Assembly (NCBI GenBank): GCA_048938105.1
Contig: JBHLMN010000011.1
Coordinates: forward strand, 64,001 to 128,000
Reading direction: 5' to 3'
DNA from: Promethearchaeota archaeon
GTDB lineage: Archaea; Asgardarchaeota; Heimdallarchaeia; Hodarchaeales; Hodarchaeaceae
Length of the DNA stretch: 64,000 nt
Of this stretch, positions 2,265 to 6,420 are shown in pieces. A program made the translations under genes and the position numbers. The notes under the pieces are model-generated. The model was not told where the DNA came from. It made no database searches and saw only the letters and a list, made by a program, of their open reading frames with translations. Position 1 is the stretch's first letter. Every line of letters begins with the position of its first letter.

Positions 2265-3275
2265 TCACCCTGTTTGACTGATGAACCCTACACGACATGT
2301 CCATAGATAGAAGAACACCCCACCCACGATCACACAGGTCGCAATAATCAAGTTTAGGGAAGGAGGGATCGGAATTTCAGTCAATGCGATGAGAAAATAG
2401 GGAATGAACCACCCAACGACAATTAACGGAACAAAAACGAGGAGAGTAATAAAGAATCTTGATTGAGAGGAAGGAATCTCACTGATTTCCGCAATATTGG
2501 CAGGAACATTCCATCTAGTGAGAAAGAAGACCTTTCGTTTAATGACAGGTAAGAGAGAGATTAAGAAGATTAAAAATGTAATGATGATACTAAGTTGTCC
2601 AATAACAACTAAAATAGTCATGAGAGGGATAAATGAGAGGAATTTACGCCTATAGGCGTTAATTATAATTGAGACCAACAACCTGCCCCACCACTGTGTA
2701 CAATAAGACACAATCACAACACCAGGATAATACAATAACCCAGTATGGATGAGATGTTTATCCCAGTAAACAGAGAAAGAAAAAGCAACAAGAAAAAAGA
2801 GAATGGAACATAAACCCAACATGATGAAGAACAAAGTCATGAGGAGGTAATGTAGATTGTTCTCTATGAGAGGTATGGGAATAAATCCTTTATGGAAGGC
2901 GGAGAGAATTGGAGGGAGGGGAATAACCATGACAATGCCACAAATTGGAAAAACAGAGTAAAAGAGAATTTTAAACAGGCGAGGAACCTCAGTAGATGAG
3001 GTTGGAAAATCAATTTGAATCACAAACATTAAGAAAAGAAAGACTCCAAGAGTTAAGAGGGGAAGATAATGATATTCTGGGAGTAATATCAGGTCAGACG
3101 CCAATCCTGCATCCGCCTGAAGAAACTCAATCCAAGAGAAACCCGCAACACTAATTCCCCACAGAATTTCCTTCATCAACACGGGATAGTTGAACCCCGT
3201 CACCACAACAGCGAGCAGACACATGAAACAATAGAGCAGGGGGCGAGTTTGGAGGTGGCGTAACCGCTGATACAT
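2265..3275 (-). CDS. Uncharacterised multi-pass membrane protein
   Basis: About 8 hydrophobic segments; probable start ATG at 3275 overlaps the LRR gene stop (TAATG), which suggests translational coupling. Confidence 0.7.
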   Translation of the reverse strand: MYQRLRHLQTRPLLYCFMCLLAVVVTGFNYPVLMKEILWGISVAGFSWIEFLQADAGLASDLILLPEYHYLPLLTLGVFLFLMFVIQIDFPTSSTEVPRLFKILFYSVFPICGIVMVIPLPPILSAFHKGFIPIPLIENNLHYLLMTLFFIMLGLCSILFFLVAFSFSVYWDKHLIHTGLLYYPGVVIVSYCTQWWGRLLVSIIINAYRRKFLSFIPLMTILVVIGQLSIIITFLIFLISLLPVIKRKVFFLTRWNVPANIAEISEIPSSQSRFFITLLVFVPLIVVGWFIPYFLIALTEIPIPPSLNLIIATCVIVGGVFFYLWTCRVGFISQTG

Positions 3276-4660
3276 TAATAATCCCAAGAATTTATATACA
3301 GGCGCCGTTGCTCTTTGTAATAGGCGTGGAGGCGTGGGGGAAGACCTGACACACAAATACGACCAATGGAAGGAGGAAGAACCCGTAAGGGATTGTTTGC
3401 TAAAGAAAGGCACAAGGTCAAGGAAAGATTGCCAATATTCGCAGGAAGCTCCTCTAAACAATTGGATTCCAGAGATAAGAAATCTAGTGGGAAATCACAC
3501 ACAAAATCAGGAAGATGGGAGATTTGGTTATTGGCTAATTCTAAATTCCGAAGCTGCTTCAAATTCTGGAGAGTAGGAGGAAGAGTAGTTAATTGGTTGT
3601 TACTTAAACATAAATTTCTTAATTTCGATAAGTGACAAATAATCTCTGGGAAATCAGAGATCTGATTGCTATGTATGCTTAAATCTTCCAACTGTGTGAG
3701 GTTACCAAGAGTGTTTGGTAAAAATTGTAACTTATTATTACTACAGAAGAGAGTATGCAGCTTAATCAGGTTACCTACTGACTCGGGTAACGTGGTTAAT
3801 TGATTATTACTTAAAATTAAGACTTTAAGTTGAAATAATTCGTTAATTCCCTGGGGAAGAGATGAAAGATTATTATCACCTACAGACAATCCTTCCAGCT
3901 GTTTTAGTTTACAAATCGCCTCAGGAAGCGCTGGAATCTGATTCCAGCCTAACCTTAAAATTTTTAAATTGATTAGATTACCAATGCTGTCAGGACATGC
4001 TGTAAGGCGATTATCCGAGAGATCAAGCAGAGTCAAGCTGGTCAAGTGGGTAATTTCTGCTAAAGCAGTCTCATCTAACGCATTGTTCGCTAAAGAGAGC
4101 TCTCTCAGGGCAGTTAAATTTCGGAAACATGATGGGATTTGTCGCAGTTGGGCATTCTTAAGAGTTAACGCCTCCACGCGAGGAAACTGACAAAATAAAC
4201 TGGGTATCTTCCCTAACGGGTAATTTTCCACCTCCAACTCCTCGAGGTGTACCAACTGAATGATCGAAGGAGGGAACACAAGCTGTGTGTTCATTTGGTC
4301 GTCCGTAACGAACAATAAGCGCACCACCCGTCTCTCCTCCACAAAAACCACCCCAGAACCAGGAAGAAACCAAGTCCACCCTTCCTCTTCCGTGACATCT
4401 TCCTCACTGACATAGACAAATCTGATCTTCCCGAACTCCTGTAGGATGTTCACTTCCTCCCGCTCGAGATACTCTAACGGATCGATAGGCTCTCCTTCCG
4501 TATCTATACTGCGCCGTTGTGGCCGTTGGCGTTCTCGTTCAAAGTACTTCAAGCTTCTTTCCGCTAGGAGCCTCTCCATCCGATCCCTCTCGGTTTCGTT
4601 TTTTCCCATATGCCTCACCGATTCATCCGTATTGGCTTTTCGTCTCCTCTCTTTCTCCAT
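3275..4660 (-). CDS. Leucine-rich repeat protein
   Basis: About 12-13 repeats of 23 aa with consensus LxxLxLxxNxLxxLPxxIxxLxx, after a charged N-terminal region. Confidence 0.93.
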   Translation of the reverse strand: MEKERRRKANTDESVRHMGKNETERDRMERLLAERSLKYFERERQRPQRRSIDTEGEPIDPLEYLEREEVNILQEFGKIRFVYVSEEDVTEEEGWTWFLPGSGVVFVEERRVVRLLFVTDDQMNTQLVFPPSIIQLVHLEELEVENYPLGKIPSLFCQFPRVEALTLKNAQLRQIPSCFRNLTALRELSLANNALDETALAEITHLTSLTLLDLSDNRLTACPDSIGNLINLKILRLGWNQIPALPEAICKLKQLEGLSVGDNNLSSLPQGINELFQLKVLILSNNQLTTLPESVGNLIKLHTLFCSNNKLQFLPNTLGNLTQLEDLSIHSNQISDFPEIICHLSKLRNLCLSNNQLTTLPPTLQNLKQLRNLELANNQISHLPDFVCDFPLDFLSLESNCLEELPANIGNLSLTLCLSLANNPLRVLPPSIGRICVSGLPPRLHAYYKEQRRLYINSWDY

Positions 4661-5080
4661 TGATTGCTATTAGCACTTTTTCCTATTTAAACCTTACTCT
4701 ATGCGAACCTTTATAAACCCCACAGGTGTATTTTTGAAAAACTTCCTTTCATGGGTTCCATAGTAATCTCTTCCCATTATTCCCACCATTTCCACCGACT
4801 GTGAGGTCATCCACCCCGACTTATTAGACATCTCTTATCATATGGTTCTCTCCTCCCCCTGTTCTTCCTTAGTTCACGATTTCAGGGGATGCCTTTTACC
4901 ATTTTTCATTTCCCCGTTTCTTCACTGTTGGTTTTTCTTAGCACCGACCCGACTTTTTTTCTTCGAACCCTATTCCATCGTACGGGAGGGGTTCCGCCTT
5001 CTTACCATTTCTATCGGGTTCGTTGGCTCTTTTCTCCTCACTCAAACTCCCTCAAATAAAAGCAATCTTACCTTAAAATC

Positions 5081-5100
5081 AAAACCAAAGGTTTTTAAAA
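5081..5100 (+). promoter_or_regulatory. Putative BRE/TATA promoter upstream of actin
   Basis: AAAACCAAAGG followed by TTTTTAAAA, about 140 nt before the actin ATG; an alternative TATA (TTTATAAA) lies at 5176-5183. Confidence 0.45.
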
Positions 5101-5132
5101 CAACGGAGGAAGGTGGTACTTGCATACGCAAA

Positions 5133-5211
5133 ATAAAGGCGTCTCCGCCAGTTGACTGAAACGGTGTCTGAGACGTTTATAAATGATCGCTTTGTAAGTG
5201 ATCTTTTTTTT
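5133..5211 (+). promoter_or_regulatory. Structured leader upstream of actin: two hairpins followed by T8
   Basis: GCGTCTC (5139-5145) pairs with GAGACGT (5170-5176); GATCGCTT (5185-5192) pairs with AAGTGATC (5196-5203); T8 follows at 5204-5211. Confidence 0.5.
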
Positions 5212-5238
5212 GACAAAACTACTCTGAAGTGAACAAAA

Positions 5239-6381
5239 ATGTCTGTAGCAGAAGGAATTACTGGAAAACCCCTCGTCATCGATAATGGGACAGGGCTTAG
5301 TAAAAATGGTTATGCCGGTGAAGACCAACCCCGCTCAGTGTTCCCCACCTTAATTGGTTACCCCAAATATCAGTCCATTATGTCTGATGTGGATCATTAT
5401 GTCCGGGAATACTACGTGGGAGAAGAAGCCATGAACTTACGTGGTGTCCTCAAGCTTATCTACCCGATTCTTCATGGAATTGTGACGGATTGGGATGCCA
5501 TGGAAAAGATTTGGCATTACACTTTCCATAATGATCTTCGTGTCAATCCAAGTGAACACCCCATTTTATTGACCGAAGCTCCTTTGAATCCTGGATCTAA
5601 TCGTGAGAAGATGGCTGAAATTTTATTTGAGACGTTCAACGTCCCTGCCATGTATGTCTCAATGCAAGCAGTGCTGTCACTGTATGCTTCTGGTCGTACC
5701 ACTGGTTTAGTTATTGATGCTGGTGATGGTGTGATTCACATTGTCCCGATTTACGAAGGCTTTGCGATCTCCCATGCGATCAGTCGTATTGATATTGCGG
5801 GTCGGGACATTACTGAGTATCTCCGCCGATTACTCCGAACCCGTGGTCGGGCTTTGACCTCCTCTGCCGAGAAGGAAATTGTCCGTGATATTAAGGAACG
5901 GTTGTGCTATGTCGCTCTCGATCCCGAGAAAGAGCTGAAGCTTGCTGAGAAAGTTTCTGGTATGGAAAAGCAATATACTCTCCCTGACGGCGAAACCCTT
6001 ACCATTGGGCCTGAACGATTTTTGGCTCCAGAAGCTTTCTTCAATCCTAGTGCCCTCGGTAAAGAAGAAACACCTCTTGATGAAGCCATCTATAACGCTG
6101 TCCAGCTCTGTGATATTGACTTACGTAAAGAACTCTATCAAAATATTGTTCTTTCTGGCGGCTCTACCATGTTCCCAGGCTTGAAAGAGCGTCTTCACAA
6201 AGAACTCACTGAACTTGTTCCTGAAAATGTTGAGATTCGGATTGTCGCTCCTCCCGAGCGCCGTTATTCTGTTTGGATTGGTGGTTCTATTCTCTCTTCT
6301 TTAAAAACCTTCCAGCGCCTCTGGGTCTCCCGCAAAGAATATCAAGAACAAGGCCCTGGCGTTATTAAACGCGCTATCTAA
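5239..6381 (+). CDS. Asgard actin (lokiactin-type eukaryotic signature protein)
   Basis: 380 aa with actin motifs [60 protein letters not shown] and [15 protein letters not shown]. Confidence 0.98.
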
Positions 6382-6398
6382 GTTCTTCCAATCTCCCC

Positions 6399-6420
6399 TT
6401 TTTTTTTCTTCTTTTTCTTT
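6399..6420 (+). terminator. Archaeal oligo-T terminator after actin
   Basis: T9 run plus further T-tracts beginning 18 nt after the stop codon. Confidence 0.7.

Follow-up and report, generated by a model that had tools for sequence, protein, structure and literature searches.

The region directly upstream of the actin gene of this Hodarchaeales archaeon carries a conserved sequence motif that is specific to actin. Positions 5085-5238 of the window, that is, of the whole 64,000-nucleotide stretch of DNA analyzed here, are best interpreted as the promoter and the 5' untranslated leader of the actin mRNA, with an actin-specific element predicted to bind a factor, an explanation to which we give about an even chance of being correct. 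According to it, transcription would start about 26 nt downstream of the center of a distal TATA box, at about G5122, and would produce a leader of about 117 nt. Within its first 50 nt, the actin-specific motif of 18-19 nt (5152-5170) would be held in a lineage-specific stem-loop. This motif is the predicted site for a sequence-specific factor, most likely acting on RNA, that would set the amount of actin through translation or mRNA stability. A second hairpin and the run of eight uridines (U8) next to it are regarded as recent features specific to this strain, which may end some transcripts early but are not the conserved function.

The ORF at 5239-6381 (+) encodes a full-length actin (Pfam PF00022, E 3e-133). 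The region between 4661 and 5238 is intergenic, and the upstream neighbor (3275-4660) is a divergent LRR gene. The features that a first-pass annotation had described at 5085-5238 are confirmed, and the interpretation that it gave to them is partly supported. Direct reading of the sequence found the TATA-like element at 5092-5100 as TTTTTAAAA and the U8 at 5204-5211 as eight T residues (T8), 27 nt ahead of the actin ATG at 5239. The stem whose arms occupy 5133-5145 and 5170-5180, with CGCC/GGUG and a short apical helix inside it, is present both by direct reading and in the RNAfold prediction, and the 8-bp hairpin GAUCGCUU-UGU-AAGUGAUC lies 1 nt earlier than first written (Table 1). Folding of the + strand of 5120-5215 with RNAfold reproduced the described helices at -28.1 kcal/mol (z -3.36), a stability equaled by none of 200 dinucleotide shuffles. 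The minus strand of the same segment folded at -16.8 kcal/mol (z -0.65), and since this is unremarkable, the earlier argument that the G-U pairs favor an RNA structure holds for the window sequence.

Table 1. Features upstream of the actin gene, in coordinates of the window.
Feature	Position	Strand	Conservation or support
Distal promoter: A-rich BRE-like AAAGG and TATA box TTTTTAAA(A)	5085-5100	+	Kept in all genus-level leaders
Initiator-like TTGCA, predicted TSS G5122	5120-5124	+	In both subgroups, G exactly 30 nt from the box's first T
Stem-loop 1: outer helix AGGCGUCUC/GAGACGUUU, inner CGCC/GGUG and GUU/AAC	5137-5178	+	z -2.55 (56-nt piece); minus strand -0.41
Core motif, consensus TGAnnGAAACGRTnnCTG, 18-19 nt	5152-5170	+	Most conserved block of the leader
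Possible uORF: TTG, 25 further codons, TGA inside the actin SD (5230-5232)	5152-5232	+	Frame open in 5 of 8 near relatives
Second TATA-like box TTTATAAA	5176-5183	+	18-19 nt past GAAACG, spacing fixed, only A<->T variation across the genus
Hairpin 2, 8 bp, one G-U	5185-5203	+	RNAfold; simple terminator scan
T8 run, possible archaeal oligo-T terminator	5204-5211	+	Strain-specific; relatives have T7, T6, T5, T5, T3 or none
SD-like GAAGTGA, 6-nt spacer, actin ATG	5226-5241	+	AAGTGA or GGTGA 6-8 nt ahead of the ATG in all relatives

The 260 nt upstream of the actin ATG were aligned among about 25 actin loci from the same Hodarchaeales genus and its sisters, gathered from genomes, metagenomes and exact-protein look-ups. 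The host genus comprises about 20 species and has two subgroups. Five blocks are common to both subgroups, that is, the BRE/TATA, the initiator, the core motif, the second TATA-like box and a weak SD. The core occurs in every leader of the genus and also outside it, in three or more further lineages of Hodarchaeales, with flanking sequence that varies freely. Each of the 19 distinct leaders at an actin identity of 93% or more has the GAAACG of the core 81-122 nt upstream of the ATG, and we found the core again in other lineages of the order (L081, L119, L116, L238) and in the sister clade at 90-93% actin identity. Two direct copies, about 40-60 nt apart, are present in the sister lineages L220, L231, L235, L236 and L116, where predicted leaders are up to 318 nt long, and the motif is inverted in L241 and L242.

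In the 5.85-Mb genome, the regular expression describing the core has a single occurrence, and its position weight matrix (PWM) scores 24 bits at actin versus 19.9 bits at the best other genome site. A search of the whole genome for a regulon, with both the PWM and the regular expression, returned only background beyond the actin site. Moreover, the covariance model R1, built on the second subgroup, found one site in each of the relatives' genomes, always ahead of actin, and did not reach the window's subgroup. One site per genome, always before actin, points to a gene-specific element that is neither a dispersed repeat nor the mark of a regulon.

The core is usually one arm of an inverted repeat that differs between lineages. 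In nearly all of them, the 56 nt around it are more stable than dinucleotide shuffles (mean z -2.7 for the + strand, -2.1 for the minus strand), and the core may be found in the 3' arm, in the loop or in the 5' arm depending on the lineage. In the second subgroup, a long inverted repeat (15 pairs, 83% paired) has the core as its 3' half, and five of its pairs changed on both sides, as in CAGAUA/UAUCUG versus CAUAUA/UAUAUG. The pairing values of this helix were matched by only 2-5 of 500 shuffles, and the pairing was lost when the partner was shifted by 1-3 columns. The window's subgroup pairs the same conserved letters otherwise, with the core in the loop and GUCUC/GAGAC as the outer helix. 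The near relatives of the window keep the fold of stem-loop 1, and RNAalifold on this subgroup agrees with it, without double compensatory changes. In L040, L116, L081 and L231, the core pairs with a complement located downstream.

Because the two subgroups pair the same conserved letters in different ways, RNAalifold found no structure common to the 17 genus leaders. In support of the first-pass annotation, the first stem-loop region is conserved and structured. The differing pairings and the lack of an RNAalifold consensus establish firmly that the linear motif is what is conserved, usually within some hairpin, and that a single shared fold is unsupported. A riboswitch or another RNA of fixed architecture was rejected: such RNAs have an identical secondary structure in all members, backed by covariation, and here the 17 leaders have no consensus structure and the placement of the core differs by lineage.

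The comparison with described RNA families gave a negative answer as well. A search with the covariance models of Rfam 15 at permissive E-values found no family above threshold; the best matches reached 13.7-15.9 bits, against gathering thresholds of 36-47 bits, with E 0.87-6.6 and in unrelated families. A box C/D sRNA or a K-turn, recognizable by RUGAUGA and CUGA in C...D order and by tandem sheared G-A pairs beside a 3-nt bulge, was discarded by inspection, given that the leader has no RUGAUGA and that several lineages replace the CUGA following the core by CUGU or CUGC. The sole C/D match in Rfam lies outside the leader (4815-4845, E 4.4).

As for the transcription of the leader, archaeal promoters can be recognized by an A/T-rich 8-mer with a purine- or A-rich BRE before it and a pyrimidine-purine initiator about 25-30 nt downstream. 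The predicted distal promoter has all three, with TGCA at a conserved 30-nt spacing, and in both subgroups of the genus the G of an ACTTGCA block is found exactly 30 nt downstream of the first T of the TATA box. This arrangement suggests a transcription start at about G5122 and fits the earlier proposal of a leader with its own upstream promoter and a start near 5120-5125, about where transcript-like contigs of relatives begin. The distal box also resembles the tRNA promoters of the same genome, in which an A-run is followed, after 2-3 nt, by the TATA box. The distance between the predicted start and GAAAC is 36 nt in the window; the transcript-like contigs of two relatives from the genus start 34-35 nt ahead of GAAAC, and in a DNA locus of the sister clade the TATA box is about 50 nt ahead of the core.

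These contigs, 20 in all and 1149-1468 nt long, came from exact-protein look-ups; they stem from three assembly sources and many samples, and each has a complete actin gene. Their actins belong to this genus (L219, L228, L229) or to the sister clade. All 20 contigs matching these proteins are shorter than 2 kb, and the window's own actin is found mostly on contigs longer than 10 kb. The 3' flanks of the short contigs measure 1-31 nt and the 5' flanks 8-318 nt (Mann-Whitney p 5e-6), with the 3' ends falling at about the position expected for a T-run terminator. In six of eight lineages, the longest contig starts 17-35 nt before the first core, with core-to-ATG distances of 73-301 nt; in the remaining two (L241 and L242), the first element is an inverted copy, 8-21 nt from the contig start. 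Additionally, L219 and L228 run continuously from the contig start into the coding sequence (CDS), with the stem-loop and the second TATA-like box in between. We infer that the short contigs derive from RNA and that the leader is co-transcribed with actin. One contig labeled as metagenomic (L218) likewise ends 4 nt past the stop codon, so that assembly breaks could mimic transcript ends. The first 10 nt of L235 (positions 1-11) exactly match the beginning of the T7 promoter (TAATACGACT), which may represent an adapter remnant of an RNA-amplification library or a chance match.

The first-pass annotation had also considered that the box at 5176 could be the real promoter. This suggestion keeps some likelihood because the box is conserved at a fixed spacing. 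A promoter at this place would be expected to have a conserved initiator as well and to be missing from the mature transcript; in L219 and L228 the box lies inside transcript-like contigs. It has no A-rich BRE, unlike the tRNA promoters of the same genome, and is followed by no conserved initiator. It is absent from the leader of L081, and in L119 it lies so near the ATG that it could not serve the conserved SD. When TATA-like words ahead of 867 ORFs were profiled over the whole genome, no sharp peak emerged, and consequently this profile is no arbiter between the two boxes. A covarying hairpin just past the second box, suggested by visual inspection, was rejected: most lineages gave no significant result against shuffles and RNAalifold made no prediction.

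The role of the second box is central to a different explanation, which we consider somewhat unlikely. In it, the core, together with its inverted copy where there is one, would be a DNA operator, the second box would be the main promoter (with a start at about 5206-5212 and a leader of about 30 nt), and the stems would be a by-product of the palindrome. An operator would account for a core that is much better conserved than its pairing partner, which may be upstream and near, upstream and far, downstream or missing, as well as for the inverted motif of L241 and L242 and for the direct copies of the sister lineages. It is also consistent with the rigid distance of 18-19 nt between the core and a box that varies only between A and T. 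The helix of the second subgroup has 10 G-U cells versus 13 A-C cells, that is, no excess of G-U, and complementarity does not extend significantly past the conserved palindrome (Fisher p 0.22). In the window's own stem there are three G-U pairs and no A-C. In the clade formed by L047, L121 and L051 (85% actin identity), conservation is highest in a block of about 120 nt (-230 to -105 from the ATG) that contains several GAAAC words and lies directly upstream of a single good BRE/TATA box, past which the leader is less conserved; this arrangement also favors an operator. On the other hand, the correlated changes of the two arms exceed those of shuffles, and the lack of any other site in the genome would leave the factor with a regulon of one gene. 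The peculiarities of the second box just mentioned, namely the missing BRE, its absence in L081, its position in L119 and its location inside the contigs L219 and L228, also count against it.

We favor an RNA element in the 5' untranslated leader because the core keeps a roughly constant distance from the probable 5' end, because the two arms change in correlation, and because of L081, which lacks the second box, and the transcript-like contigs. Some of our data point the other way. G-U pairs that do not exceed A-C in the second subgroup are unexpected for an RNA helix on the + strand, and the second box, given its rigid distance from the core, would suit a promoter preceded by an operator as well. 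The contig L218, with its similar end, and the lack of a structure shared by the 17 leaders, whose subgroups pair the conserved letters differently, weigh in the same direction, as does the presence of T8, so similar to the gene's own terminator, within the leader of this strain.

The terminator of the actin gene is a typical archaeal oligo-T terminator, made up of a bare T9 at 6401-6409, 19 nt past the stop codon, followed by T-rich sequence and without a hairpin (6382-6420). The T8 of the leader is of the same kind, and no co-directional gene upstream of it needs a terminator. Runs of at least eight T within 120 nt upstream of the start codon were found in 1.3% of the 867 SD-led ORFs of this genome. 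This rarity, the likeness to T9 and the lack of an upstream gene that would need T8 make partial termination of the distal-promoter transcripts plausible in this strain. A functional oligo-T terminator, taken as a run of at least five T that ends transcripts, is expected at a conserved position. Among strains with identical or 99% identical actin, however, the run varies from T8 to none, as detailed in Table 1, and the second-subgroup leaders have no run of four or more T. Runs of T5 and T6 also occur within leaders of transcript-like contigs that continue into the CDS. We regard T8 as a modifier specific to this strain.

Hairpin 2, taken alone, is modestly unusual (z -2.1, p 0.04). The terminator scan detects it, yet the region yields two sites versus 1.8 expected. 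Some of the nearest relatives retain it, reduced to GAUCA/UGAUC, and others do not; in most lineages the stretch after the second box is no more structured than shuffles. Since hairpin 2 and the U-run vary among such close strains, the terminator-ended sRNA or attenuator that had been proposed from the window sequence seems unlikely as a conserved element. As a general mechanism the proposal is also not supported, in view of the leader being joined to the CDS on mRNA-sized contigs of two relatives from the genus. An independent sRNA gene, which would have its own promoter, its own conserved terminator and a transcript separate from the neighboring mRNA, was rejected on account of a promoter that is conserved and a terminator that is not, and of leaders joined to the CDS on the transcript-like contigs of relatives.

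The same mechanism may still be envisaged for this strain only, in which case transcription from the distal promoter would produce an RNA that starts at 5122 and ends at hairpin 2 and U8 (about 5205-5211), with a length of about 85-90 nt. Such a product could be an sRNA or an attenuated leader, with actin mRNA arising from read-through or from the proximal box. The rarity of T8, its likeness to T9, the absence of an upstream gene that needs it and the modest stability of hairpin 2 speak for this version. Nevertheless, the fluctuation of the T-run among strains with nearly identical actin, its absence in the other subgroup and the T5 and T6 runs inside leaders that reach the CDS make it highly doubtful. 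No alternative anti-terminator or mutually exclusive helices were found in the leader, and an abundant cytoskeletal gene placed behind an efficient terminator would require another promoter.

The core may also be read as coding sequence. In this case it would be the start of a short uORF (NTG, Ser/Thr, Glu, Thr, Val/Ile) that tunes actin translation through termination-reinitiation or ribosome stalling, and in this strain a ribosome moving behind the polymerase could also affect read-through at U8. We regard this as unlikely, although several aspects of the sequence variation are codon-like. An NTG-(S/T)-E-T-(V/I) start is present in most lineages, with T, A, G or C as the first letter of NTG, with AGT, AGC, ACT or ACC as the second codon, with a Thr codon (ACG, ACA, ACT, ACC) fixed in its first two letters and with a free third position in the Val/Ile codon. 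In five of eight near relatives, 26 codons are kept without indels across very diverged sequence, with the TGA in the SD, and no other frame is open.

Leader peptides and uORFs are characterized by a start codon, an open frame and a conserved peptide in all members, and by mutually exclusive helices. Here, the start codon is missing in three to four clades, among them a subclade of seven species (TCG); it is also missing in L036 and L039 (TTA) and in L231 (ATA), where the motif is still conserved, and in L241 and L242 the motif is inverted. The predominance of ACG, together with the fact that GAG was never seen in spite of being synonymous with GAA, points to a constraint at the nucleotide level. 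Past about seven residues the peptide is not conserved and substitutions have no codon-position bias. There is no SD ahead of the uORF, and the probability of a frame being open by chance is 0.33-0.56 per sequence. The full version of this idea, a long leader whose 5' end carries a conserved five-codon uORF (Met-Ser/Thr-Glu-Thr-Val/Ile) and in which this uORF would control actin synthesis, in the archaea closest to eukaryotes, in the manner of uORFs or nascent peptides, coupled in this strain to an oligo-U attenuator crossed by the ribosome, appears quite improbable. Among the readings of the core, we place the RNA element in the 5' untranslated leader first, the DNA operator second and the uORF start third.

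Returning to the RNA element, its closest parallels are structured 5' untranslated leaders with a protein-binding or stabilizing stem-loop near the 5' end, such as the bacterial ompA leader and the autoregulatory leaders of ribosomal-protein genes. Like them, the actin leader is long, belongs to a highly expressed gene and has a conserved, gene-specific stem-loop close to its 5' end, with a single copy per genome and a patch of conserved primary sequence within variable helices. It differs in having a fold that changes by lineage, in an element that starts 15-30 nt from the probable 5' end, not at the end itself, and in its Asgard host. A parallel at the DNA level is the Thermococcales glycolytic motif (TGM), TATCAC-N5-GTGATA, an archaeal palindromic operator near promoters that is bound by TrmBL1 and marks a regulon. 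The actin element resembles TGM in its ..TCAC / GTGA.. inverted repeat between the TATA box and the start codon, and in both the position relative to the TATA box could decide between repression and activation. Unlike TGM, it has arms of up to 17 nt, a spacing between copies of 4 to more than 60 nt, one arm that is sometimes absent and one gene only.

Leader-peptide attenuators and regulatory uORFs of the trpL and ermCL type also contain a short leader ORF, and the part conserved in the actin leader would be its first codons; in this strain, the ORF crosses a hairpin and a U-run and ends beside the main start codon, as in that type. The actin leader, however, has no terminator and anti-terminator helices and no run of regulatory codons, lacks the start codon in several clades and has an unconserved terminator. 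The T8 is akin to archaeal oligo-T terminators in being a run on the coding strand, like the T9 after the actin stop codon, but differs from the usual ones in its place inside a leader, with a start codon 27 nt further on, and by ranging from 0 to 8 T among close strains. In these comparisons, the element resembles a gene-specific leader element or operator; it belongs to no Rfam family and is neither a riboswitch nor a C/D RNA, and it is probably no classical attenuator.

Further upstream, the segment 4838-5030 contains the blocks CCATATGGTTC (about 4838), GTTTCTTCAC (about 4916), TTCGAACC.TATTCC (about 4960) and TTCTATCGGGTTCGTTGGC (about 5009), which are conserved only among the nearest relatives of the window, despite differing upstream genes. 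The first and third blocks are inverted copies of each other, about 115 nt apart. A coding function for these blocks was rejected, since no reading frame is conserved. Their conservation indicates that the upstream control region of actin may reach about 400 nt. The divergent pair formed by the LRR and a membrane-protein gene (2265-4660) is not a conserved neighbor of actin, as its place is taken by a peptidase S9 gene or a 124-aa ORF in strains with identical actin (loci L213-L217). With regard to the host genome, ARAGORN, run without intron search, found only 15 tRNA genes in the 99% complete genome G000, which suggests that many tRNA genes are intron-bearing or split.

Actin is the signature cytoskeletal protein that connects Asgard archaea with eukaryotes. 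A literature search returned no study of actin leaders or TSS maps in Asgard archaea. A single-copy, actin-specific motif across Hodarchaeales, combined with an unusually long leader (a predicted 107 to 318 nt), provides a concrete handle on the control of actin expression in these archaea. It offers defined bases for mutation and an RNA or DNA bait for the regulator, as well as a prediction that public RNA-seq data of two cultured Hodarchaeales strains can put to the test. If the uORF reading were true, the leader would represent an early case, within the Asgard lineage, of uORF control in the eukaryotic style; if it were false, the leader would still contain a new archaeal cis-regulatory element, useful and of a familiar kind.
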